Shown here: piece after piece, positions 2,917 through 61,507 of the stretch
Numbering within the stretch: position 1 is the stretch's first letter
Layout: every line of letters starts with the position of its first letter
Assembly (NCBI GenBank): GCA_964609695.1
Contig: CAZSSP010000005.1
Coordinates: 69,345-133,344 of the forward strand
Source of the DNA: an uncultured Bacteriovoracaceae bacterium
GTDB lineage: Bacteria; Bdellovibrionota; UBA2428
DNA length: 64,000 bases
Direction of reading: 5' to 3'
The notes under the pieces: generated by a model
The model's database searches: none
What the model was told of the DNA's origin: nothing
Seen by the model: the letters and a program-made list of their open reading frames with translations, nothing else
Translations under genes and position numbers: made by a program

Positions 2917-5814
2917 CTAAGCTCTGAGAAATTCTTCAACAGGCAAAGCGGAAGAGTTTTTTAAGGCTTCTAATAAAAACTCACCTGTGGGACCTTTTTT
3001 TCTTCTACCGACATCTTCGGGGGTTCCCTCATCGAGGACACTACCGCCGTATTTACCACCACCAGGACCAAAATCGATAACCCAATCCGCACATTTTACA
3101 AGCTCCATATTGTGCTCAATAACAACAACACTATTTCCTTGTTCTACAAGTTCATTAAGCACTCGTCCCAAAACCTTAACGTCGCTCACATGCAGACCTG
3201 TGGTCGGTTCATCAAGAATATAGAAAACGCCTTTGTTATCACTTCGCGACAATTCACGAGCAATTTTTAATCTTTGAGATTCACCGCCCGACAATGTGGT
3301 TGAAGATTGACCTAATCTTAAATAACCCAATCCCACTCGTTCCAATGTTTTTAGCGTGACGTTAAGCTTTGCTTGTGAAGCAAAAAAATTTCTAGCTTCA
3401 CTCACTGTTAGATTGAGAATGTCGTGTATGTTTTTTCCTTGAAAACGAATTTCAAGAACTTCTTTCGTGAATCTTTTACCTTCACAATGCTCGCATAGAA
3501 GATACATATCTTCCATAAAAAGCATTTCCACCCTAGTGTAACCTTCACCTTCGCAATGCTCGCAACGCCCACCAGGAACGTTGAAAGAAAAAAATCCCGC
3601 ATGATAATTTCGTTTTTTGGCTTCTGATAAATTTGCAAATAAACTTCTAATTTCGTCAAAGGCTTTCATGAAAGTTACAGGATTTGAACGAGAACTTCTC
3701 CCGATGGGTTGCTGATCAATTAACACCACCGATTTGATAGACTCAAAAGAAGAAATTTGATCAAAAATTCCGATCTCTTCAAAATCTTGCATAAATATTT
3801 TGGCTAAAGCAGGATAAAGGGTTTTTCTGACCGCTGTAGATTTTCCAGAGCCAGAGACACCCGTCACACAAGTCATAACCCCTAAAGGAATTTTCAATTC
3901 AACATCTTTTAAATTATGAGAGCGACAACCCTTAATTGAAAGCCAATTGGTGCGACGACCTTGGTCTTTAACCCGATCCAGTCTTCTTCTTTGAGGAATA
4001 GGGATATGGTCCTTGCCCGAAAGGAATCTCCACGTTGAACTTCCAGGAATTTCTTTCGACATAAAAGATTTCATGTCGCCCTGATACATCAACTCTCCAC
4101 CGCGCTCTCCAGCAAAAGGGCCAATATCTACCAAATGATCAGCCACTGAAATGATAGTTGAATCGTGCTCGACAACAACAACAGCGTTTTTAAGTGCACT
4201 CAAATCTCTTAAGATACTTATCAACTTCTCAGTGTCTTGAGGATGAAGTCCAATGCTGGGTTCATCTAAGACATAACATGTTTGAGTCAGACGAGAACCT
4301 AATTGGTTGGCGAGTGCAATTCTTTGCGCCTCTCCTCCTGACAAAGTTTTTGCCAACCGATTTAAAGTTAAATAACCCAAGCCAACTCTTAATAAGAAAT
4401 CTAACCTCTGAGTGATTTGAGGCAAAACATCTTTGGCTACTGCCGTTTCCGTTGAGCTCAATTTCAACTTTTGAAACCATAGAGCAAGATCTTCAACACT
4501 CATAGCACAGAGTTCAGAAATATTTTTCGAATGAAATTTTACAAATCGTGCTTCTTTACAAAGTCGTTCCCCACCACAATCCACGCAAAGCTGAGGACTT
4601 CTGTATCTTGAAATAAAAACACGAGTTTGAATTTTATATTTTTCATCTTCTAATTCAGCAAACATTCCCTTTATGCCTGCAAAATCTTTTTCACCATTCC
4701 AGACTCTGTCCTGATCTTTTTTTTCTAGATCCTTCCATCGCATGTTGAGGGAAATCTTTTTGGCCTGACAAAATTTCAACAAATCTCTCAACCAATCTCG
4801 AGCAGAAGGTTTTGTAAAAGGCTCAACGGCACCCTGAGAAATAGACAAATTTGGATTAGGAATCACCAAAGCAGGATCGAGAGTTAAAACATTTCCAAAT
4901 CCATGGCATCGCGCACAGGCACCCACGGGTGAATTGAAAGAAAAAAGTTGAGGACTGAGCTCAGGAAATCTTTTTTCTTCACCATCCACAGAGGGAAATT
5001 CCGTAAATGTTTTATGATCCAACAAATGATTGTCGTCATCTAAACTTAGAAAAATAGCGCGCCCTAAACCTTCTCGGTAAGCACCGACAATGGCTTCTTC
5101 TATTCGACCCCGAAACTCTTCGGAGGCTTCCATACGATCCACTAAAATCCAAGGCTTATTAATTCCAGAAATCTTATTGAGGATTCCGCCTTTTTTAAGC
5201 TTGATTTGATCTTCAATTTCTAAAAACTCTATAGGGCCTTTGGACTTTAACGCCTGAGGCATAAGTATTTTTGTAAAGCCACGCTCAAGATAGGAAGCCA
5301 ATAAACGAGCTCTCTCGTCGGGGGTTGATTGGGCTCTAACATCTAATGGAAAAAGCCAATAAATTTTCTGACCTTTATGGTCCTTTAAAATTTTTTCCAA
5401 AACATCAACGACAATATCTCTCTTAACTATTTTTCCAGTTTCTGGATCAAACATTTGCCCTAACTTAGAAAAGAGTAGTCGAAAATAATCGTAAATTTCG
5501 GTGGCAGTGCCCACAGTTGAACGTGAATTTTTTGTGTGATTTTTTTGCTCTAATGCAATAGTCGGACAAATTCCGCGAATATCATCGACATCAGGTTTTT
5601 CATGCTTAGCCATGAATTGTCGCGCATACGTGCTGAGGGACTCCAAATATCGGCGCTGACCTTCTGCAAAGAGAGTGTTGAAAGCTAAAGAAGATTTCCC
5701 ACTTCCCGATGGACCCGTAACGACACTCAAACGACCCTTAGGAAAACGAACATTGAAATTCTTAAGATTGTGTTGCCTGGCTCCAAGAACTTCAATATCT
5801 GAGGTGCTACTCAT
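2917..5814 (-). CDS. uvrA: Excinuclease ABC subunit A
   Basis: 965 aa. N-terminus GARQHNLKN..VVTGPSGSGKSSLAFNTLFAEGQRRYLESLSTYARQF. Second Walker A GVSGSGKST. Zinc-finger cysteines (CxxC pairs). Two ABC signatures LSGGE. Confidence 0.97.
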   Translation of the reverse strand: MSSTSDIEVLGARQHNLKNFNVRFPKGRLSVVTGPSGSGKSSLAFNTLFAEGQRRYLESLSTYARQFMAKHEKPDVDDIRGICPTIALEQKNHTKNSRSTVGTATEIYDYFRLLFSKLGQMFDPETGKIVKRDIVVDVLEKILKDHKGQKIYWLFPLDVRAQSTPDERARLLASYLERGFTKILMPQALKSKGPIEFLEIEDQIKLKKGGILNKISGINKPWILVDRMEASEEFRGRIEEAIVGAYREGLGRAIFLSLDDDNHLLDHKTFTEFPSVDGEEKRFPELSPQLFSFNSPVGACARCHGFGNVLTLDPALVIPNPNLSISQGAVEPFTKPSARDWLRDLLKFCQAKKISLNMRWKDLEKKDQDRVWNGEKDFAGIKGMFAELEDEKYKIQTRVFISRYRSPQLCVDCGGERLCKEARFVKFHSKNISELCAMSVEDLALWFQKLKLSSTETAVAKDVLPQITQRLDFLLRVGLGYLTLNRLAKTLSGGEAQRIALANQLGSRLTQTCYVLDEPSIGLHPQDTEKLISILRDLSALKNAVVVVEHDSTIISVADHLVDIGPFAGERGGELMYQGDMKSFMSKEIPGSSTWRFLSGKDHIPIPQRRRLDRVKDQGRRTNWLSIKGCRSHNLKDVELKIPLGVMTCVTGVSGSGKSTAVRKTLYPALAKIFMQDFEEIGIFDQISSFESIKSVVLIDQQPIGRSSRSNPVTFMKAFDEIRSLFANLSEAKKRNYHAGFFSFNVPGGRCEHCEGEGYTRVEMLFMEDMYLLCEHCEGKRFTKEVLEIRFQGKNIHDILNLTVSEARNFFASQAKLNVTLKTLERVGLGYLRLGQSSTTLSGGESQRLKIARELSRSDNKGVFYILDEPTTGLHVSDVKVLGRVLNELVEQGNSVVVIEHNMELVKCADWVIDFGPGGGKYGGSVLDEGTPEDVGRRKKGPTGEFLLEALKNSSALPVEEFLRA

Positions 5815-11316: not shown

Positions 11317-12741
11317 TTGAGAACTGTTCTGAAATCTAGTGCATTGCCGTTGTCGCGTCTCGAAGACGTGTTTCCTGCACATCTTTTTGCCAATAATTCA
11401 GAACTACAATCCATCTATGATCGTTTTTTAATTTTTTCAAAGCCAATCATCGAAAGCGATGGAGTCTTACTATCCGTTCCTACAAATTTCCACAAACAAG
11501 CTCTCTTAAAGTGGAAAGATCAACTCGAAAAGGTGAGTGGCGTTTCGATTAAAAGCGTCGATGTCTCTGTTCAAGAAAGAGTTAAAAAAGATCATCTCCC
11601 CAGCCCCAATCAACACCATCAAGTTGCACTTCCTTTGGCGCCTGTTAATCCCGTTCAAGAAATTGAAAAAAGAGAACTTGAGAGGCGATCAACAGCACCT
11701 TTTTATATTAATAGTCCTGCGTATCAATTAGCTTTTGAACTTACAAAACGATGGGCCAATAATCTTTTTCACCCAAGCGCGCCTTCTCAAAGTCTCTTGT
11801 GGGTTTTTGGTGCTGCGGGAAGCGGAAAAACTTACTTACTCAAGCAGTTGAACTCTTGGGTTCCTCAAAACAAACGACTTCATTTTGTTAATGTCATTTC
11901 CTTTTTCCAAGAGTGGAGACAGGCTCTAGACAACAACGATACTTTTCAATTCATAAAAAAATATCGAAAAGACATTGATGTTCTTGTTTTAGAAAACCTC
12001 GATGATTTAGTTGGAAAAAAGAAAACCCAAGAAGAAGTTCTGTTTACCATAAGTGCCCTTATTGAAAGAGGCGCTCATATAGTTGTTTCAAGCACACACA
12101 ATCCAACTAGTTTAAAAGATCAACTAGAAGCACAACTCTATAGCAGACTCTTATCAGGCATGACCATCGAAATGCCAAAACCAGATCGTCGATTCAAAGA
12201 AGCTTTACTCAGAAGACTTCTAGATGAAAACGGATTGAAAGATTATGAACTCGATCTTGTTGTTCAGGAAAAATTATTAAGCATTCCTGTTTCATCGGCA
12301 AGAAAAGCCAACTCTCTATTTATTAATGTGATTAGCCGTCTCTCATTGACTAGAAGCTTTAGTTTGCAAGATGTCATTATTTTAGAGCACACCATTGGCG
12401 AAAAAGCCCAAAGCACTTCTATTTCTAACCATCAACCTAAAGAACTTATTGAAAGTGTTTGTCGACTTTGCGGCGTGGGACCTAGCGCACTCCTAGGCCA
12501 CAGCCGTCGCGCAGAAATCACTTTAGCTAGACGTTTTGTTTGCTTATCACTTTCAAAGTTTTTAGGACTAACCAACAGCACCATTGCTCACTACCTTGAA
12601 AAAGACCCTTCAACCATCAGCCATGCTCTTAAAACGGCTGAAGTTGAAATTGAAAGCAATCGAATTATTGGAAAGCAATGGAACTGGATTTGCTCTCAAC
12701 TTGGCCTCGAAATTCCAACTCAAACAGCCTCTCAACAATAA
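11317..12741 (+). CDS. dnaA: Chromosomal replication initiator protein DnaA (divergent)
   Basis: 474 aa. TTG start; the first in-frame ATG is far inside the ORF. Walker A GAAGSGKTYLL, Walker B DVLVLENLDD, SRLLSGMTIEMPKPD. Domain IV RRAEITLARRFVCLSLSKFLGLTNSTIAHYL..STISHALK. DnaA boxes lie upstream. Confidence 0.85.
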   Translation: MRTVLKSSALPLSRLEDVFPAHLFANNSELQSIYDRFLIFSKPIIESDGVLLSVPTNFHKQALLKWKDQLEKVSGVSIKSVDVSVQERVKKDHLPSPNQHHQVALPLAPVNPVQEIEKRELERRSTAPFYINSPAYQLAFELTKRWANNLFHPSAPSQSLLWVFGAAGSGKTYLLKQLNSWVPQNKRLHFVNVISFFQEWRQALDNNDTFQFIKKYRKDIDVLVLENLDDLVGKKKTQEEVLFTISALIERGAHIVVSSTHNPTSLKDQLEAQLYSRLLSGMTIEMPKPDRRFKEALLRRLLDENGLKDYELDLVVQEKLLSIPVSSARKANSLFINVISRLSLTRSFSLQDVIILEHTIGEKAQSTSISNHQPKELIESVCRLCGVGPSALLGHSRRAEITLARRFVCLSLSKFLGLTNSTIAHYLEKDPSTISHALKTAEVEIESNRIIGKQWNWICSQLGLEIPTQTASQQ

Positions 12742-49713: not shown

Positions 49714-50577
49714 ATGAAAAATCTTTGGATTCTACTAGCACTGAGTTTTTCTTTTATGTCGACCGCTAAAACAACCTTGAGAGTTGAGGCTCCTCAACTC
49801 AATGACGTCGAAGCCTCTAAGGGAATACTGCTGAAGGCTCTCATTGAAGATGCCGTGAGATCTCATTCTAGCTACATTTTATCTCAAGACTCCAAATCTG
49901 AAGCCAATCTTACAAGTTCGCTTCATAAACTAGACAACAATTATTTATTTATAATGGCCTTAAACACAAAAGATAATAGCAGAAGTGAGAGAGTGAAATT
50001 ATCAAGCCTTGATGAACTCGATACTGCTGTCTCAAGACTCTCTGATTCAGTACTCGAAGGAAAAACATTAGCCGAAACTGCTACCCAAGGTGAAATACTC
50101 AATAGAGATTCTCGATCTCGCGAAAGAGTAAAGTCGATTCGTGGTTTTGAACTAGGATTAGGAACAGGATTTCCTCTCACCCAACCCCTTGGTGACAAAG
50201 AAGCCATGTGGGCTTTAGGTTTTGGATTTGCTTGGGATGTTGATGAAGCTTTCCTAGAAACGCGATGGGATGCACTCTCTCACTTTGGAGACAACAATCC
50301 AGGCTCCTATAACACTTTTACACTTGGGGGAAATTACTTTTGGCACGATACAAGTCGCTATGGAATTTTTAGTGGAGCTAACTTTGGATTTGCCAATAGC
50401 AGCAATTCAAAAATTCAATCTAAAAGCGGATTCCACATAGGTCTCGACACAGGCGTGCTACTTTTTCGCCATGCCGATGTTAATCTCGAATTACGGGCCC
50501 GATACATGATTATGGTCAGCCAGATTAAGGGCGCCTACCCTCAATTATTCAGCATGATTTTAGGCCTGCATTTATAA
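49714..50577 (+). CDS. Hypothetical outer-membrane protein (soluble N-domain plus small C-terminal beta-barrel)
   Basis: 287 aa with a signal peptide. The C-terminal half has alternating aromatic/Gly strands (GFELGLGTGF, WALGFGFAWDV, TFTLGGNYFW, GFHIGLDTGVLLF). Confidence 0.55.
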   Translation: MKNLWILLALSFSFMSTAKTTLRVEAPQLNDVEASKGILLKALIEDAVRSHSSYILSQDSKSEANLTSSLHKLDNNYLFIMALNTKDNSRSERVKLSSLDELDTAVSRLSDSVLEGKTLAETATQGEILNRDSRSRERVKSIRGFELGLGTGFPLTQPLGDKEAMWALGFGFAWDVDEAFLETRWDALSHFGDNNPGSYNTFTLGGNYFWHDTSRYGIFSGANFGFANSSNSKIQSKSGFHIGLDTGVLLFRHADVNLELRARYMIMVSQIKGAYPQLFSMILGLHL

Positions 50578-50594: not shown

Positions 50595-52298
50595 TTATTT
50601 ATTGGCTGCCCTAAGCGCATTAATTTCATACTGCTGATCGATAAAGGGCTTCATTGTGTCTTTATAGATTTGCTTTTTATGAGTCAGGGCCGCATCTCCA
50701 GTATTGATGGCTTCAGATACGCTTTCAGGGTCTCCAATTTTTTCAATTTTTTGAATGTAATAATGAATTTTAAGAGATTTCTTCAATAAAAACGCCTCAA
50801 CTAATTCTGCTTGGCGTGCAGACATTGAAGGAAGGGCAAAAATGGCATCATCTCCACTCGCATAATAATTTAACCGAGTTTCCAAAATAATATCTAATCC
50901 GGTCGTAAGTTGCTCAAATTCATTAAGCAACTCAGCAGTGGTTTCATTATAAATTGATCTGAGATTTTTAAAACCTGCACCATCTTCTATCCAATCATTT
51001 CGAGCATGAGCAGCTTTAAGCCCAAAGTTTTTAAGATCTACGAAAAGCAAATTTCCTGCGCGCATTGATTTAAAATAAAATAAAGCTCTCTGCACTGTCC
51101 AAGCTTTAGGTAATAGTGTTGAAATTCTATCAATATCAGAAAATGTCAGAGTTCTATTTTCCCCAACTTCATTTAAAAGTTGATGGATTTCTGCGACTTC
51201 ATTTTTTGTTGGCACATTATCAAGTGGTAAAAAATCACCCACACTACCCGCTCGTCGATAATCACGTAACCAAACCTCTATTTCAGGTTTTCTGCTTAAA
51301 GGTATTCTCACATTACCCATCCAGTGAGCTAACTCTGTTTGACCCTCTACACTATCCACATCAAATCTCGTAGCCTTAGTGATTTCATCTTTTGAAATTC
51401 CTCCTAAATTTCCATGACCAAAAAGTTTTCGATAAGCCCACTCAAGACGGTTACGCCATTTTTTCACAGTTTCGTAATTTGAATTTTCATAACCCAACGT
51501 TTTTAACTTAAGATCAACGTGTGCATATTCCAATGTTGGACCCCTTCCGTAATGAAGAACTTCCGCAGCCCAATCCTCCCAACTCATTCCATCTACCGGC
51601 TCAGGTCGTATGTCGCGAACCCTATCTGCAAATTTTTTCCTCAATGGTTTTAAAATTTCAGATTCAAATTTTTCAGGACTTAATTTTGAAAGCAGAACTC
51701 TGTCTTTATAATTTTGATGAACGAGTAACCCCAAAGAAAAAGCATCTGTAGTATCCAAAATTTTTGCCAATTCTTCATTGAGCATAGTTAAGGCAAACTC
51801 TGTTGTTTTAACATCCCAAGATTTATTGAGTTCTTTTAAATGCCCTATTTGAATCCAATAAGCTTGCTGGTCTTTAAATTTTTCAGGATGATTATTATAT
51901 TCAGCCCAATTAAGACGCATCTTAAGCGTATTTTTAAGATCTTCTTTTAAAACTCTACCCAACCACTCAAAATCATCTTCACCCTTATATCCATAGAATA
52001 AGTCGCTAAAGAGACGCCTGATATTTGATGGTTTTATAGCTCGAGCTATTTTCACCAATGAATTCGCACATGGCGTCTGCCTAGACGTAGGCAGTTCCTC
52101 TGGAGTGTCCATGAGCAATGGAACTTGAGAATTAACTGAAACAAGAGGCGCTATCGGGCGATGAGCCGCTTTACGTGAAGGCCTCATTTTGGAGGATTTA
52201 GCTGCTAAAGAATTTTCACTTGTTAGGAAAATTACGAAAAAGCCTAATAGCAAAATACTAGAAAGCTTTAAAAGATTTCGAATCGGAGCAGGCAGCAT
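50595..52298 (-). CDS. Hypothetical signal-anchored protein with a C-terminal GGDEF/Cas10-like palm signature
   Basis: 567 aa. N-terminal hydrophobic segment. aa 415-500: GNLLFVDLKNFG ... NYYASGDDAIFALPSMSARQAELVEAF. Confidence 0.6.
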   Translation of the reverse strand: MLPAPIRNLLKLSSILLLGFFVIFLTSENSLAAKSSKMRPSRKAAHRPIAPLVSVNSQVPLLMDTPEELPTSRQTPCANSLVKIARAIKPSNIRRLFSDLFYGYKGEDDFEWLGRVLKEDLKNTLKMRLNWAEYNNHPEKFKDQQAYWIQIGHLKELNKSWDVKTTEFALTMLNEELAKILDTTDAFSLGLLVHQNYKDRVLLSKLSPEKFESEILKPLRKKFADRVRDIRPEPVDGMSWEDWAAEVLHYGRGPTLEYAHVDLKLKTLGYENSNYETVKKWRNRLEWAYRKLFGHGNLGGISKDEITKATRFDVDSVEGQTELAHWMGNVRIPLSRKPEIEVWLRDYRRAGSVGDFLPLDNVPTKNEVAEIHQLLNEVGENRTLTFSDIDRISTLLPKAWTVQRALFYFKSMRAGNLLFVDLKNFGLKAAHARNDWIEDGAGFKNLRSIYNETTAELLNEFEQLTTGLDIILETRLNYYASGDDAIFALPSMSARQAELVEAFLLKKSLKIHYYIQKIEKIGDPESVSEAINTGDAALTHKKQIYKDTMKPFIDQQYEINALRAANK

Positions 52299-52438: not shown

Positions 52439-52816
52439 TTAGTCAAAACTAACTTCTTCGGTAGCGCCACAGGTACTGCAACCACCACCCGTTGCACATT
52501 CTTGGCACTTACCACTTCGCCCTTGTCCGCACTCTTCATTTTTACAGGGACGATTCAAATCACCATTCCAAAAAAAGAGTTCCCAGTCCTTAGCAAATTC
52601 GCTAGCCGCAAAACTTCTAGCCTTTTCAAAACTATCAAATTCCCAACTTCCGACCTCAGAATATGGAAAACTATTGTGGATAAATACCTGATATACATAG
52701 CTCTGTGTAACGGGGTCAAATACAAGGTTAATTCCCCCTTCTTTTCGATCACTTACAAAAACGCTACGTTCAGCATTTTCTTCTTTCATTGCCATGATAC
52801 GAATAAAGTTATTCAC
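52439..52816 (-). CDS. Hypothetical protein with a six-cysteine C-terminal tail
   Basis: 125 aa. GTG start preceded by GAGGA. Tail CKNEECGQGRSGKCQECATGGGCSTCG (C-x4-C-x7-C-x2-C-x5-C-x2-C). Confidence 0.55.
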   Translation of the reverse strand: MNNFIRIMAMKEENAERSVFVSDRKEGGINLVFDPVTQSYVYQVFIHNSFPYSEVGSWEFDSFEKARSFAASEFAKDWELFFWNGDLNRPCKNEECGQGRSGKCQECATGGGCSTCGATEEVSFD

Positions 52817-52879: not shown

Positions 52880-53515
52880 ATGACTAAAAGCCAGAAAGCA
52901 CAATACATAAGCCAAAGACTTGCTGAACTTTACCCCAACCCCAAACCCCCACTCACTCATACGGACCATTATACGTTGCTCATAGCCGTTTTATTGTCTG
53001 CTCAATGTACTGATAAAAGAGTTAACCAAATCACTCCTCTATTGTTTGCAAAGGCTAAAAATCCAGAGGAAATGATAAAGCTTGGTCAAAAAGAAATTCT
53101 TAAAATTGTGAGACCCTGCGGTCTTCCCCAACAAAAATCCTCAGCTATTTATAATTTATCTAAAATACTGGTCGATAAATACAATTCAAATGTTCCCAAC
53201 ACTTTTGAAGATCTCGAAAGCCTTCCTGGAGTAGGACACAAAACAGCGTCAGTAGTGATGAGCCAGGCTTTCGGGATAGCCGCCTTTCCTGTGGACACTC
53301 ATATTCATCGATTGGCGAAAAGATGGAAACTCAGTTCAGGCAAATCCGTTACCCAAACGGAACGAGATTTAAAAAAGATTTTTCCTGAAAAGCTTTGGAA
53401 CAAACTTCATCTTCAAATTATTTTTTACGCTAGAGAATATTGTACGGCTTATAATTGCGATGGAAAAACATGTGAAATTTGCAGCACTGTGAATAATTGC
53501 ACCAAGCCCCAATAA
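52880..53515 (+). CDS. nth: Endonuclease III
   Basis: 211 aa from ATG 52880. LLIAVLLSAQCTDKRVN, HhH LPGVGHKTASVVM, DTHIHRLAKRW. Cys cluster at the C-terminus. Confidence 0.93.
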   Translation: MTKSQKAQYISQRLAELYPNPKPPLTHTDHYTLLIAVLLSAQCTDKRVNQITPLLFAKAKNPEEMIKLGQKEILKIVRPCGLPQQKSSAIYNLSKILVDKYNSNVPNTFEDLESLPGVGHKTASVVMSQAFGIAAFPVDTHIHRLAKRWKLSSGKSVTQTERDLKKIFPEKLWNKLHLQIIFYAREYCTAYNCDGKTCEICSTVNNCTKPQ

Positions 53516-53555
53516 ACTAAATTCTGGCTTTATGAGTTAGAAATTTATAAATCAT

Positions 53556-53891
53556 CTATTTTTTTGAAAAGCAGCTATATCGAAAGTCAGAATCATTTTT
53601 GGAATAAAGATAGCGAAATTTGATGCAAGCTAAATTTCTAGCTTGAAAAATTTCCCCAGCAAAGGAACGCTCATAACCGCGCCCCCCTGTTTCATGTTCG
53701 CAAGCTTGAGACACCACTGACTGACTCAACAAAGTGCAAAGTTCCTTACAAGCGAATGGCTCATTATCTAATATTCGTATTTTAAGAGTAGTCTTTTCCC
53801 ATAATGAATTTTCACGACATTCAGGAACTTCAGCAAAAGACTGCAAAGCAATTAACAAAGATATAGAAATAATGGATTTATATTGAAACAT
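53556..53891 (-). CDS. Small secreted or periplasmic Cys-rich protein of unknown family, downstream of a TPP riboswitch
   Basis: 111 aa. Signal peptide ISISLLIALQSFA. Six Cys in the mature part. AAGGA lies 8 nt upstream of the ATG. Confidence 0.6.
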   Translation of the reverse strand: MFQYKSIISISLLIALQSFAEVPECRENSLWEKTTLKIRILDNEPFACKELCTLLSQSVVSQACEHETGGRGYERSFAGEIFQARNLACIKFRYLYSKNDSDFRYSCFSKK

Positions 53892-53896
53892 TTTAG

Positions 53897-53988
53897 TATC
53901 CTTCCGCCAGCATTACCTGGATCAAGTTTATTGGGTCGCTCAATTAACATGAGCCTCTCAGCCATCTACTTAGACAGCTCCCCAGTTG
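53897..53988 (-). promoter_or_regulatory. TPP (THI-box) riboswitch
   Basis: The minus strand reads CUGGGGAGCUGUCUAAGUAGAUGGCUGAGAGGCUCAUGUUAAUUGAGCGACCCAAUAAACUUGAUCCAGGUAAUGCUGGCGGAAGGAUAC. It contains GGGGxGC, a P3 hairpin AGCUGUCU/AGAUGGCU, CUGAGA, a variable hairpin GCUCA/UGAGC, ACCC, and a CCAG-GUAAUG-CUGG helix followed by GCGgAAGGA. Confidence 0.85.
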
Positions 53989-54133
53989 ATTTAATTAACT
54001 TCTATCAATATTTTTTATTAGAAACAAATCCCTAAAAAATGTATTTTTGACACATTAATTAAATTCATACACCCAGGATTTATTATGAGATAATAGCTGT
54101 CTATACCACGAAAAGTTTAGGAGGCTGCATTTA

Positions 54134-55177
54134 ATGGAAAACCATTTAAAGAATTTAAAATTTCCAATCGAAGCTACTGCGCGCACGGCCTTTTATCTTA
54201 TTCCGGCAATTTCAGCCCAAGTTTTTTTAGGCCACTTAAACAATCCCAAGATTAAAGAATTTAGAAATCGAATGAGTCTTTGGGATAATCTTAAAGAAAT
54301 CAAAAATCTATACGCTCAAGACCAAGCCAACATTTCAAAGGGCTACTATTTAGCTCCTGAAAAGATTATTCCAGATATTAAAAATTACCTCTTAATGAAC
54401 GTTAAAAATGCTTTTGATTTGCTAAAAGTAAAAAGACGAATAAAAAATAAAGATGTCCGAGTTTTTGATGAAAAAATTTGTCCTTCGGATTTTCCTCCTT
54501 ATTTTAGACAAAGCTTTCATTATCAAAGCGATGGATACTTTAGCTCTGATTCTGCAGAACTCTACGATCACCAAGTCGAGCTTGTCTTCACAGGCACCGC
54601 ACAAGCTATGCGAAGGCATGGAATTAAAGCCATATCTCTAATAAGCGGAAATACAAATTATCCACGATTAGATAAGCTAAAAATACTAGACATTGCTTGT
54701 GGCACTGGCCCTTTTACTTCTGAGCTGGAACGACATTTTCCAAAAAGTGAAATTCATGGAGTAGACCTCAGCCCCTGGTATCTTTCCGAGGCTCAAAATA
54801 AATTCCCGCAATCAAATATAAAATGGCAATTTGCTAAAGCAGAAAAACTTCCCTTTGATGACGAAAGTTTTGATATCGTAAGTTCAGTCTATCTCTATCA
54901 TGAATTACCCGAAAAAATTCGAAAGCAAGCCGCTAAAGAAATGCTTCGAGTCCTAAAGCCCGGAGGCACTCTTGTACATATTGATAGTATTCAAAAGGGT
55001 GACGTAGCCGAGCTCGACGTTGGTCTTGAGGTCTTTCCGCAAGCTTATCATGAACCTTATTTCAAAAATTATATAAGCCAAAACACAGAAGCGCTTTTTG
55101 AAAAACTTGGTCTCCAAAACGTCAATTCAGACTATGCCTTTTACTCTAAAATAATCCGTGGCCATAAAAAGAATTAA
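54134..55177 (+). CDS. Class I SAM-dependent methyltransferase
   Basis: 347 aa. ILDIACGTGPFTSEL, HGVDLSP, LKPGGTLVHIDS. GGAGG SD upstream. Confidence 0.85.
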   Translation: MENHLKNLKFPIEATARTAFYLIPAISAQVFLGHLNNPKIKEFRNRMSLWDNLKEIKNLYAQDQANISKGYYLAPEKIIPDIKNYLLMNVKNAFDLLKVKRRIKNKDVRVFDEKICPSDFPPYFRQSFHYQSDGYFSSDSAELYDHQVELVFTGTAQAMRRHGIKAISLISGNTNYPRLDKLKILDIACGTGPFTSELERHFPKSEIHGVDLSPWYLSEAQNKFPQSNIKWQFAKAEKLPFDDESFDIVSSVYLYHELPEKIRKQAAKEMLRVLKPGGTLVHIDSIQKGDVAELDVGLEVFPQAYHEPYFKNYISQNTEALFEKLGLQNVNSDYAFYSKIIRGHKKN

Positions 55178-59025: not shown

Positions 59026-59640
59026 CTATCTTTCAAGCTCTTTTAAAGGAAAAACCTGAAAAAGATCAATAAGCTGATATCGCTTCTGTTCGGGTTGATA
59101 AGAATAAAAAGATAAACTTAATTTTTCAGCCACTTCTTCTGGAGACTTTAGAGAAGGCTGATACTTTAAAAAACCAAGTATTTCAGCACTTTGCAAAGAA
59201 TCCACCAGAAGAGTTCCACTGATTCTCAGGGGAGAGAACTCCACATCTTTAACCGAAAGATCGTTCTTATTAGAAGTCTGCGTAGGCAACTTAAAGCTAG
59301 CTACAACGAAGTACAGGTCGGGGCGACAAGTGTTTCTTAAGATAATTTCGAGTTCTGAAGCTTTCTTATCGCGTTTAACATTGATTTGGAGAGCTAATTC
59401 TCTCTCTCGATTCACCCAAATTTTCTTATCAACGGCTTCCCAAGGCAAATAACCGTCTGAAAAATTTCTTATTGAGGGATTGGCAAGAGAAGGAAAAAAA
59501 TCTCTAAGCTTGCGCTCATCAAGCTCACCACAATTCATTTTTTTAAACAAATCGGGCAGAAGCTTGGACTGCTCATCGGCAGAAACATTAAAAAACGATG
59601 CACTCATCAAAGTCGCTATAAACAATAGTTTTCTAATCAT
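59026..59640 (-). CDS. Hypothetical secreted protein
   Basis: 204 aa from ATG 59640 (MIRKLLFIATLMSASFFNVSA signal). The track's 21-aa extension overlaps the upstream gene. Confidence 0.55.
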   Translation of the reverse strand: MIRKLLFIATLMSASFFNVSADEQSKLLPDLFKKMNCGELDERKLRDFFPSLANPSIRNFSDGYLPWEAVDKKIWVNRERELALQINVKRDKKASELEIILRNTCRPDLYFVVASFKLPTQTSNKNDLSVKDVEFSPLRISGTLLVDSLQSAEILGFLKYQPSLKSPEEVAEKLSLSFYSYQPEQKRYQLIDLFQVFPLKELER

Positions 59641-59644
59641 GAGA

Positions 59645-61507
59645 CTAACGAATCTCCGGCTGTATTTTGTTCTGAGACGCCAAACGAGGAGCAGTCTCAG
59701 CAATCTTAGTGGATATATTCACCTTCATGTTTGGATTGAAATAATAGCCCTGAGAACCGTTCATAATATAGCGACTCTCGCGGGGATTTGGCTCAACCAA
59801 TTTACGAAGACGATTGATGTTAATATAAATATTATTATCGTGGCGAAGAGGGTTGTACTCTTGCTGCCAAATCTTCATAGCCAATTCTTCCTTGGAATAT
59901 TCTTTTCCAGGCTTTTCGGCCAAAAGCATAAGAATTTTCATCAAAGTGAACTTGTTATGAAATGGAATTTCACCCAAATGCTTCTCGCGAACGTAGTGAG
60001 AAATCGGGTCGATTTCCATATCAATTGATTGCTCAGGAACGAAGTGGAAGTCTTCGAAAAACTCATTCACACATCTTTGAGAGAAAGGATTGAGCTTAGC
60101 GAGTTCAGCAGTCCAACTATCGTAACTATTAATCAAGAAACGAGAGAGAATGACTCGTTCAACTTCAGCATTAAGTCTATTGATGAGAGGGAGAAGATCG
60201 GCACCTTCTTTGGCAGAAAAACTACGTCCCACCTTACGATTAAGAACAAATTCAATAAGCTTCGCCTTAATGAAATGTCGCTCAAAATCGGAACCATTAC
60301 AGACCTTCAACATTTCATCGGCTTTTTTAAGAGCTTCAGCGGGATATCCGCATCGTGAATCCAAACGCGCCAACAATTCTAAGCACACGGCCAAGTGTCG
60401 TCGCATTCCTTTTTCTTTGTAGAAAATATAAGCTTCTTCGAGCATTTCAGTGGCTTGCTCATGCTGAGCCGCTTCACCGGTACGCAATAAAACTTCAGCT
60501 TTTAAGGGGCGAAGGCGCATGATTTGACGGTGATTATTTTCTTTAACGGCCATCACAACCAACTGATCAATTTTTTCATTGGCTAATTCGAATTTACCTT
60601 CGCGAATAGCGAGCAAAGCTTGTCCTCTAAGCATACGACGACCGTAGTAAGAAGACTCATCGCCATTAATACTGGCCGCAATGTCACTGTAATGAGCTTC
60701 GGCTTGAGCGTAATTTCCACTGGTCGTGCAAAGCTCAGCTAAAGTGAGGCGAGATAGAATATTAATTCTCCAAAACTCGACACCACCTGCAGAATTATTA
60801 GTCGCTAAATCTAAGTAAATTGTAGCGCGCTCATGGTCTTCAAGAGCAGCATAACAAGTACCAATCGCCCATAGAACGTAATGGTAACCACTGCTATTTT
60901 TATTATTATTAAAAAGAACTTTTGCCTCTTCAAAAAGTGGGATGGCTTTTTCAGTTAAGCCTTGTTTTCGGTAAACGTTACCAATTAAAATTTTCAAGGA
61001 TCCAATGTTTAAAGGGTCGCCACTCTCTTGAGCCGCTTTCAACAAATCGGCTTCTTGCTCGAAAACATCATTATAAAAGCCTTCAGATCTTAAAATATCG
61101 GCCAAACCTAATTTGCATTTAAAAACGAGAGCCTTGTCGCCAAGTTCATTGGCCACATCGAGTCCCATAAGAAAATATTGGCGAGCTTTAGAAGCATTTC
61201 CAGAAAAATGCCAGACTGTTCCAGTATGGTAGAGACAATTTGCAAAGGGTCTTTTTTCAGAGTCTTTAGTGATTGGAATTTTTTTAACTTCATCGACGTA
61301 TTCAGAAATTTTTTCGAACTCACGAGTTTCAGCAGATATACGAATCAGAAGCGCATAAGCTTCGATGGCGTCGCTTCCCTTAGGCTTTTCTTTAACAAAT
61401 TCCTTCAATAATTTTGCCGCCTCAGAAAGCTTCCCATCTTCGCGGATCAATTGATTGGCTTTTTCTAGTACGTTCTCGTTATCTGTTTTCTTCATATTGA
61501 AAATCAC
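59645..61507 (-). CDS. TPR-repeat protein with a C-terminal OmpR/PhoB-type winged-helix DNA-binding domain
   Basis: 620 aa with multiple TPR-like units. C-terminus FTLMKILMLLAEKPGKEYSKEELAMKIWQQEYNPLRHDNNIYININRLRKLVEPNPRESRYIMNGSQGYYF matches the trans_reg_C pattern. Confidence 0.72.
   Translation of the reverse strand: MIFNMKKTDNENVLEKANQLIREDGKLSEAAKLLKEFVKEKPKGSDAIEAYALLIRISAETREFEKISEYVDEVKKIPITKDSEKRPFANCLYHTGTVWHFSGNASKARQYFLMGLDVANELGDKALVFKCKLGLADILRSEGFYNDVFEQEADLLKAAQESGDPLNIGSLKILIGNVYRKQGLTEKAIPLFEEAKVLFNNNKNSSGYHYVLWAIGTCYAALEDHERATIYLDLATNNSAGGVEFWRINILSRLTLAELCTTSGNYAQAEAHYSDIAASINGDESSYYGRRMLRGQALLAIREGKFELANEKIDQLVVMAVKENNHRQIMRLRPLKAEVLLRTGEAAQHEQATEMLEEAYIFYKEKGMRRHLAVCLELLARLDSRCGYPAEALKKADEMLKVCNGSDFERHFIKAKLIEFVLNRKVGRSFSAKEGADLLPLINRLNAEVERVILSRFLINSYDSWTAELAKLNPFSQRCVNEFFEDFHFVPEQSIDMEIDPISHYVREKHLGEIPFHNKFTLMKILMLLAEKPGKEYSKEELAMKIWQQEYNPLRHDNNIYININRLRKLVEPNPRESRYIMNGSQGYYFNPNMKVNISTKIAETAPRLASQNKIQPEIR

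Follow-up and report, generated by a model that had tools for sequence, protein, structure and literature searches.

Genes controlled by thiamine pyrophosphate (TPP) riboswitches are almost always thiamine-related. Riboswitch association is among the most reliable routes to the function of unassigned genes; it led to the first recognition of several thiamine transporters and salvage enzymes, and Rodionov et al. in 2002 reportedly found the association reliable for identifying thiamine transporters and salvage proteins. Here we describe a TPP riboswitch on a stretch of 64,000 nucleotides from an uncultured Bacteriovoracaceae bacterium (contig CAZSSP010000005.1; the whole stretch is called the window), together with the gene directly behind it, an open reading frame (ORF) of 111 amino acids (aa). 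The coupling of the riboswitch to one protein family, without name, domain or structural relative, is strict and exclusive over deep divergence. Our preferred reading, to which we give a probability of roughly one half, is that the protein would act as a starvation-induced extracytoplasmic accessory in the acquisition of thiamine or a precursor, most simply as a small binding protein.

As for exported soluble proteins of the thiamine regulon that act in acquisition, TbpA/ThiB (of ThiBPQ) and ThiY (of ThiXYZ) have about 300 residues or more and the periplasmic-binding-protein fold, and are encoded beside a permease and an ATPase. YkoF, from the TPP-riboswitch-controlled ykoCDEF operon, is a small non-membrane protein that binds hydroxymethylpyrimidine (HMP) or thiamine; it is cytoplasmic, has neither signal peptide nor disulfides, adopts a tandem ferredoxin/ACT-like fold and is encoded inside a transporter operon. 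For other nutrients, the hemophore HasA and BtuG (B12, Bacteroides) are small to medium in size, exported and made under nutrient shortage; they bind their nutrient outside the cytoplasm and pass it to a transporter, and both are encoded next to their receptors. No thiamine equivalent of HasA or BtuG was found in the searched literature. Lastly, expression of the extracellular protein thiaminase I is linked to a TPP riboswitch, and its gene shares an operon with biosynthesis and salvage genes (PMC5627462); by this precedent, secreted factors can belong to the thiamine regulon.

The aptamer

Only one Rfam family passed the threshold of cmscan in the window, namely RF00059, the TPP riboswitch. 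The match (60.7 bits, E 2e-9, gathering score 54.3) is full-length, with model positions 1-105 of 105 covered, and this covariance-model check agrees with the TPP riboswitch that the original prediction had read from the letters alone. The THI-box blocks named there were all found, that is GGGGAGC, the P3 hairpin, CUGAGA, the GCUCA/UGAGC hairpin (P3a), ACCC and UUGAUCCAGGUAAUGCUGGCGGAAGGA. The unconstrained minimum-free-energy fold of the window leader yields P2, P3, P3a, P4 and P5 unaided (Table 1). In terms of ligand contacts, known for TPP from the thiM structures, CUGAGA forms the pyrimidine pocket and the GCG of the P4/P5 internal loop the pyrophosphate/Mg pocket. This loop with its GCG is present in the window, as are CUGAGA and ACCC.

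Conservation follows the same parts. Helices P2 to P5 were recovered by RNAalifold from five diverged leaders, and across these five distinct leaders the predicted pairs are kept in 99.1% of cells, compared with 34-50% in slid controls where the 3' partners were shifted. Compensatory changes on both sides were seen in 6 of the 23 pairs, in P3, P3a and the base of P2. The leaders score 0.322 for covariation versus 0.128 for shuffled alignments, and none of 500 shuffles attains this value. CUGAGA, ACCC, the other junctions and P4/P5 are unchanged across six aligned leaders; P4 and P5 are uninformative on covariation because they never vary. Judged from sequence and pairing, the RNA is a canonical, ordinary RF00059 member with a known type of expression platform.

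Expression platform

In all lineages the sole Shine-Dalgarno (SD)-like element is the 3' purine block of the aptamer, (G/U)AAGGA, with the AUG 5-7 nt on. For the window, the earlier claim that AAGGA is the only such element stood, and the distance of 8 nt to the ATG given with it did not, the spacer being 7 nt. An arrangement with the start codon at most 15 nt from the aptamer core has been termed 'direct translation attenuation' (Barrick & Breaker 2007, PMC2258182); it is said to be common among TPP riboswitches, with the purine-rich conserved region at the 3' side replacing the ribosome-binding site (RBS) (PMC2258182). The window leader falls within this definition, with its RBS taken from the purine block and the AUG directly behind, which speaks for the translational control proposed earlier.

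No terminator-like site was found between the window aptamer and the ORF; the aptamer, which makes up the entire 5' leader of this single-gene unit, runs up to the coding region and leaves no space for one. Because no terminator fits between aptamer and AUG, the leader is, by its architecture, a case of direct translation attenuation, from which we infer the response to the ligand. With TPP plentiful, the two sensor arms would be clamped together, the RBS and start codon would be buried and translation would be off. With TPP scarce, the weak P4/P1 edge at the 3' side of the aptamer would open and the mRNA would be translated. Thermodynamic folding of the five leaders gave no conserved anti-sequestor. 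As for the reach of the switch, the gene downstream of the ORF was found to be nth (endonuclease III) and to be convergent, just as had been claimed, so the ORF is the only gene that the switch can control in cis.

Coupling of riboswitch and ORF across lineages

The co-occurrence of the THI-box with homologs of the ORF extends to other genomes. The original prediction would have failed had such homologs never followed THI-boxes, and the outcome was strongly the opposite. At every locus encoding a family member, RF00059 lies immediately upstream and on the same strand, with scores of 53.4-63.2 bits. The highest value, 63.2 bits, belongs to L003, followed by L001 and L011 (60.7 bits), L009 and L010 (59.5 bits) and L004 and L005 (57.9 bits). 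L006, L007 and L008 have 53.4 bits (E 7e-8), just below the gathering score of 54.3. The one locus that seems to depart from this, L002 (30.8 bits), is no decayed switch: its contig is chimeric, with 1.7x coverage and unrelated DNA rich in guanine and cytosine (GC) joined inside the aptamer (L002:1-300). Since the contig junction falls inside the aptamer, the weak match is an assembly artefact.

GC content varies widely between lineages, with 37-39% at the low end and 50-54% at the high end, and in BLAST comparisons of the distant loci with the window the ORF itself was the only match. Flanking genes are unshared between lineages, apart from a 389-aa lipoprotein common to L004 and L009. The window clade has a methyltransferase upstream and nth downstream. 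L009 has an RNase T-like gene upstream and the lipoprotein downstream, and L004 a 287-aa protein without assigned function upstream and the same lipoprotein downstream, while L006 is flanked by a LigT-like protein upstream and a cluster resembling those for ribosomally synthesised and post-translationally modified peptides (RiPPs) downstream. Since the surroundings differ while the riboswitch-ORF module persists, the inherited unit is, by this comparison, the aptamer plus the ORF. As functional hints, the neighbours were set aside; the methyltransferase beside the window gene and the 389-aa gene after family member P0006 are unrelated. Furthermore, in L004 and L009 a GC-rich hairpin with compensating differences stands directly after the ORF stop, and past it, ahead of the next gene, a promoter-like TTGAC box; the features shared by these two lineages, hairpin and lipoprotein, were noted at L004:1750-1933 and L009:6629-7882. 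This order of hairpin and box fits a single-gene unit.

Some features of these flanks are of separate interest. The predicted 389-aa lipoprotein of L004 and L009 has no Pfam match and a possible S-adenosylmethionine (SAM)-binding-like motif (ILEFGYGG...VGVDLD). The RiPP-type biosynthetic cluster, so called by its appearance, lies just downstream of the riboswitch-controlled gene at L006:3445-9480 and also in L007 and L008. It starts with the strong-SD gene of a 52-aa peptide (MMNENNDQAVSTTKQNEF...SVVSRRC) and a perfect 12-bp hairpin, and continues with a Cupin_8/JmjC protein, a 413-aa function-unassigned protein, a permease of the major facilitator superfamily, a ThiF-like E1 protein and a 466-aa ATPase (ABC_tran P-loop). 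Because about 195 nt and its own SD stand between it and the riboswitch gene, the cluster is probably a separate transcription unit. In the close relative L003, an extra 230-aa gene without Pfam match (4650-5342, minus strand) is inserted between methyltransferase and riboswitch, which makes the intergenic region ahead of the switch a site of insertion and deletion.

The ORF and its product

The window ORF is 92% identical in protein to its ortholog at L001 and 83% to that at L003. Substitutions by codon position in the comparisons among window, L001 and L003 are 3/4/11, 7/9/23 and 6/9/27, with the third position dominating, and dN/dS is 0.17-0.23 (Nei-Gojobori). Because dN/dS is about 0.2 against the orthologs, the ORF is by this measure a real gene under purifying selection.

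These values bear on the possibility that the pairing has no function, the aptamer being a decaying relic or the ORF an incidental one with a role at the RNA level, for example antisense read-through into nth. The weak P1 would fit such a pairing (the leaders allow at most 2-3 A-U pairs), as would the lack of a consensus terminator in the spacer between ORF and nth in the window and the aptamer of L006-L008 with its score just short of the gathering score. However, the aptamer core is invariant and the helices covary across lineages. The ORF is under purifying selection, and motif, six Cys and signal peptide are kept down to 32% identity. The convergent nth is found only in the window clade, whereas L004, L009 and L006 have other genes downstream, which run in the same direction as the ORF. 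We consider a pairing without function very improbable.

The translated product agrees with the claim of 111 aa, a signal peptide and, in the part behind it, six Cys; it begins with MFQYKSIISISLLIALQSFA followed by EVPEC and has its Cys at C25, C48, C52, C64, C89 and C107. By inspection, an n-h-c leader is present in each of the six family members, and 2-7 residues separate its end from the first conserved Cys. For signal peptidase I, the predicted sites are SFA/E (window), ASA/A (P0006), LSA/H (P0004) and ARG/V (P0003). No hydrophobic stretch that could serve as a further membrane segment was seen in the mature part, likewise by inspection. Considering the family as a whole, the mature proteins have six Cys each, 88-96 aa, 10-11 kDa and a net charge of -1.5 to +0.9. 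The six conserved Cys probably form three disulfides and fit an oxidising compartment.

The host has two membranes, as the window encodes an Omp85/POTRA protein, TamB, TolQ/TolR/TolB, a TonB_C-domain protein and an OmpA-family protein. We read the Omp85/POTRA protein and TamB as TamA/TamB, and TolQ/TolR/TolB with the TonB_C-domain protein as Tol-Pal. Because of the signal peptide and the two-membrane host, the product should be Sec-exported, with a predicted location in the periplasm or outside the cell.

Protein family and predicted fold

We ran word-indexed searches of 5.8 billion cluster representatives, one with a single sequence and two with growing alignments. They converged on a family of five clusters at 90% identity (P0001, P0002, P0003, P0004 and P0006). 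HMMER, run without an index on 1.84 billion representatives (50% identity), gave three true clusters and one spurious one. P0005 (1067 aa, 11 matched stretches), from the HMMER scan, is a low-complexity repeat protein and not a relative. All five clusters come from uncultured bacteria, and the searches spanned 5.8 to about 15 billion predicted proteins. Of 185,579 genomes representing species, a single one was found to carry the family, the metagenome-assembled genome (MAG) 'Proteobacteria bacterium Gw_Eff_bin_446' (L011), which is syntenic with the window. Metagenome and viral scans gave no additional members. A CEHETGGRG match in a Bacteroidia MAG (L012) was discarded; it runs antisense to a long ORF read as arabinose isomerase, and no riboswitch accompanies it.

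In terms of annotation, all sources report a 'hypothetical protein'. Pfam gave no match for any of the six members, even at E<=10, NCBIfam none for the window protein, and PDB sequences, searched with a profile, nothing below E 0.2, in line with the proposal of an orphan secreted Cys-rich protein outside the known classes of the THI regulon. The classical thiamine regulon contains genes for biosynthesis, salvage and transport, and the ORF product is not assignable to any described family of these. By its constant association with the aptamer, the ORF family is a new gene class within the thiamine regulon, that is, a classical riboswitch with a new effector gene. The literature that we covered, which is not complete, describes neither the family nor a secreted thiamine-binding or thiamine-capture protein of such kind.

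The family falls into four lineages with 32-50% protein identity between them. Invariant across the six sequences are P23, C25, W31, I40, C48, L51, C52, C64 and E65, and also G69-F77 (GGRGYERSF), G79, L87, C89 and C107. The resulting signature, CEHxTGGRGYERSF, spans the loop of the beta2-beta3 hairpin.

AlphaFold2 with the six-sequence alignment gave a mean predicted local distance difference test (pLDDT) of 81.4 and a predicted template-modelling score (pTM) of 0.70, with values around 90 over most of the mature domain. The model is confident and its fold compact, a beta-alpha-beta4 arrangement made of beta1 (37-40), alpha1 (45-58), beta2 (61-67), a loop, beta3 (76-83), beta4 (87-94) and beta5 (104-110), and the four strands after alpha1 are antiparallel. 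The signature loop has the lowest pLDDT of the modelled domain and is its least confident part. Foldseek found no significant PDB relative for this model (best E 0.27, TM score at most 0.33) and none in BFVD (best E 0.11). A first AlphaFold model, built from three near-identical sequences, was set aside, as its pLDDT was 56 and its Foldseek matches were meaningless. Going by the six-sequence model, the fold is probably previously unseen.

The signature loop is where a small periplasmic enzyme or redox factor would have its active site, one that converts phosphorylated, disulfide or degraded forms of thiamine to a transportable one before uptake instead of binding them passively. The invariant residues E65, R71, Y73, E74, R75 and S76 share one loop and might be catalytic, a redox-active pair such as C48xxxC52 might be among the six Cys, and Pnu-type uptake takes unphosphorylated thiamine. 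On the other hand, the mature protein has 91 residues and no similarity to a phosphatase, thioredoxin-like or thiaminase fold, and a CxxxC on one helix face would more commonly belong to two structural disulfides to the sheet than to a redox pair. Such an enzyme seems to us unlikely.

As for the rate of evolution, the riboswitch-controlled protein is 83-91% identical in genome pairs (window versus L003 and L011) in which the adjacent genes reach 94-99.5%, with PrkA at 99.5% and the methyltransferase at 94-95%. This hints at a secreted, starvation-induced effector that would not bind thiamine, with the riboswitch merely sensing B1 or metabolic status. It might be a toxin or lysis factor freeing the vitamins of neighbours, an inhibitor or a signal, and its target might be other cells or the cell's own envelope. 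Faster evolution than that of the neighbours is typical of secreted interaction proteins, and the product is small, exported and disulfide-rich, has a fold without known relative, carries a CxxxC on its predicted helix and has no linked transporter. However, its mature net charge is close to zero, unlike that of cationic antimicrobial peptides, and the CxC strand motif of the Cys-stabilised alpha-beta defensins is missing. No immunity gene or secretion partner is conserved alongside, conservation is focused on one loop instead of being spread on a variable surface, and the bias of TPP riboswitches towards thiamine-related genes also argues against it. Overall, we find an effector of this kind somewhat unlikely.

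Possible role in thiamine acquisition

The preferred reading, an accessory of thiamine or precursor acquisition, follows from two considerations. Genes under TPP riboswitches serve thiamine supply, and this protein would be made only under thiamine shortage and would act in the periplasm or outside the cell. In such a role, the small protein would capture thiamine, a phosphorylated form of it or a precursor, and would retain the compound or hand it to an unlinked transporter. The candidate ligand site consists of the invariant Trp31 and the loop TGGRGYERSF, with its aromatic, acidic and Arg/Gly residues. In its most specific form, this would be a small exported protein dedicated to the capture of thiamine, the first of its kind (a 'thiaminophore' or a thiamine chaperone of the periplasm), of about 10 kDa, with three disulfides and an unseen fold, made only on opening of the TPP riboswitch, binding through W31 and TGGRGYERSF and feeding an unlinked transporter; this version is possible, and we hold it tentatively.

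Several observations weigh against the proposed mechanism and role. In every leader cmscan flagged 2-3 of the 5 pairs of P1 as non-canonical, P1 is absent from the RNAalifold consensus of the five leaders, and their thermodynamic folding gave no consistent open and closed states of the RBS. No transporter or thiamine gene is linked at any family locus, and no similarity to known thiamine-binding proteins was found, in sequence or in fold (Pfam, PDB profile, Foldseek). The family is also very rare, and is therefore no general solution to thiamine uptake.

The importance of the finding is limited by this rarity: about 15 billion predicted proteins yielded no more than five clusters, and uncultured bacteria are the source of each. 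The same switch precedes every relative known so far, so the protein probably represents a new element in the response of some uncultured bacteria to a lack of B1. If thiamine is bound or processed outside the cytoplasm, the family would add a new type of component, probably with a new fold, to vitamin B1 acquisition, which shapes cross-feeding in aquatic and engineered-water microbial communities. Thiamine binding would also make it a compact natural thiamine-binding module for sensors. If it does not bind thiamine, the locus would be unusual in placing a non-thiamine secreted effector under a TPP riboswitch, which is also informative.

Features and neighbourhood in the window

The coordinates of the riboswitch, the ORF and the adjacent genes are listed in Table 1.

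Table 1. Positions of the riboswitch parts, the ORF and the neighbouring genes in the window
Feature	Position	Strand	Remarks
TPP riboswitch aptamer	53881..53994	-	RF00059; last 11 nt overlap ORF start
Pyrimidine-sensor arm	53932..53984	-	contains P2, P3, CUGAGA junction, P3a
P2	53984-53981 with 53935-53932	-	UGGG with CCCA
P3	53979-53973 with 53966-53960	-	
CUGAGA junction	53961-53956	-	
P3a	53954-53950 with 53942-53938	-	optional hairpin
Pyrophosphate-sensor arm	53901..53926	-	contains P4 and P5; invariant in 5/5 distinct leaders
P4	53926-53924 with 53903-53901	-	CUU with AAG
P5	53920-53917 with 53910-53907	-	CCAG with CUGG
Shine-Dalgarno AAGGA	53899..53903	-	AAG = P4 3' strand; GA = junction at aptamer 3' edge
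ATG start codon	53889..53891	-	7 nt past AAGGA
ORF, 111 aa	53556..53891	-	start at 53891
Predicted signal peptide, residues 1-20 (MFQYKSIISISLLIALQSFA)	53832..53891	-	cleavage predicted after SFA, by eye, -3/-1 rule
Mature domain, 91 aa	53559..53831	-	10.6 kDa, isoelectric point 7.8, six conserved Cys
Family signature CEHETGGRGYERSF, residues 64-77	53661..53702	-	beta2 end, beta2-beta3 loop, beta3 start (model)
Spacer of 40 nt, ORF stop to nth stop	53516..53555	none	no consensus terminator
nth, endonuclease III, HhH-GPD, 211 aa	~52880..53515	+	PF00730 1.5e-22; length from L014 gene call
Divergent class I SAM methyltransferase (UbiE-like)	54134..55177	+	not conserved beside distant homologs

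Of the 52 window ORFs that reach 120 aa, 51 were scanned with Pfam, NCBIfam or both, and none of them is thiamine-related. The one left out, of 182 aa (59480-60028), overlaps two larger minus-strand ORFs.

Other features of the window stand apart from the riboswitch. An ORF of 125 aa (52439-52816, minus strand) has no Pfam or NCBIfam match and is rich in Cys at its C-terminus (CKNEECGQGRSGKCQECATGGGCSTCG). In L011 its identity is 100%, compared with 93-99% for its neighbours, and JGI records list it as a called gene. Two ORFs, of 567 aa (50595-52298, minus strand) and 287 aa (49714-50577, plus strand), carry signal or anchor sequences at the N-terminus; neither has a significant match in Pfam or NCBIfam, and both are 93-98% identical in L011. 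Lastly, a DnaA-family protein is encoded at 11317-12741 (plus strand), where Bac_DnaA and a C-terminal helix-turn-helix were matched with modest scores. Cumulative GC skew falls steadily over the whole window, and because it has no turning point there is no sign of a replication origin near this gene.

Comparison with known systems

Among exported nutrient-binding proteins, HasA and BtuG offer a functional analogy only, with no sequence or fold relation to the window protein. Defensin-like peptides with a Cys-stabilised alpha-beta motif, in which a helix CxxxC is bonded to a strand CxC, are about 40-50 aa long and usually cationic. The window protein shares the CxxxC with them (C48, C52); unlike them, it has no CxC, its remaining Cys are at 25, 64, 89 and 107, and the mature proteins of its family have 88-96 aa and are near-neutral.

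As for the described members of the thiamine regulon, thiaminase I is an enzyme of far greater size whose fold resembles that of binding proteins, and the window protein showed no homology to it in the PDB profile and Pfam searches. In contrast to YkoF, it has a signal peptide and a predicted beta-alpha-beta4 fold, and the six family members have no YkoF match in Pfam at E<=10. Compared with TbpA/ThiB and ThiY, the mature protein is of 91 aa, has the predicted beta-alpha-beta4 fold and comes with no linked transporter. Neither a substrate-binding-protein family at Pfam E<=10 nor a periplasmic-binding-protein structure among the Foldseek matches was found.

Finally, set against classical TPP riboswitches, the locus differs in two respects: P1 has only 2-3 weak pairs here, and the gene lies outside the described thiamine families. 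In all other parts compared, it resembles RF00059 with direct translation attenuation (PMC2258182), having a full-length aptamer with all conserved junctions and P3a, an RBS supplied by the 3' purine block, an AUG within 15 nt and no terminator.

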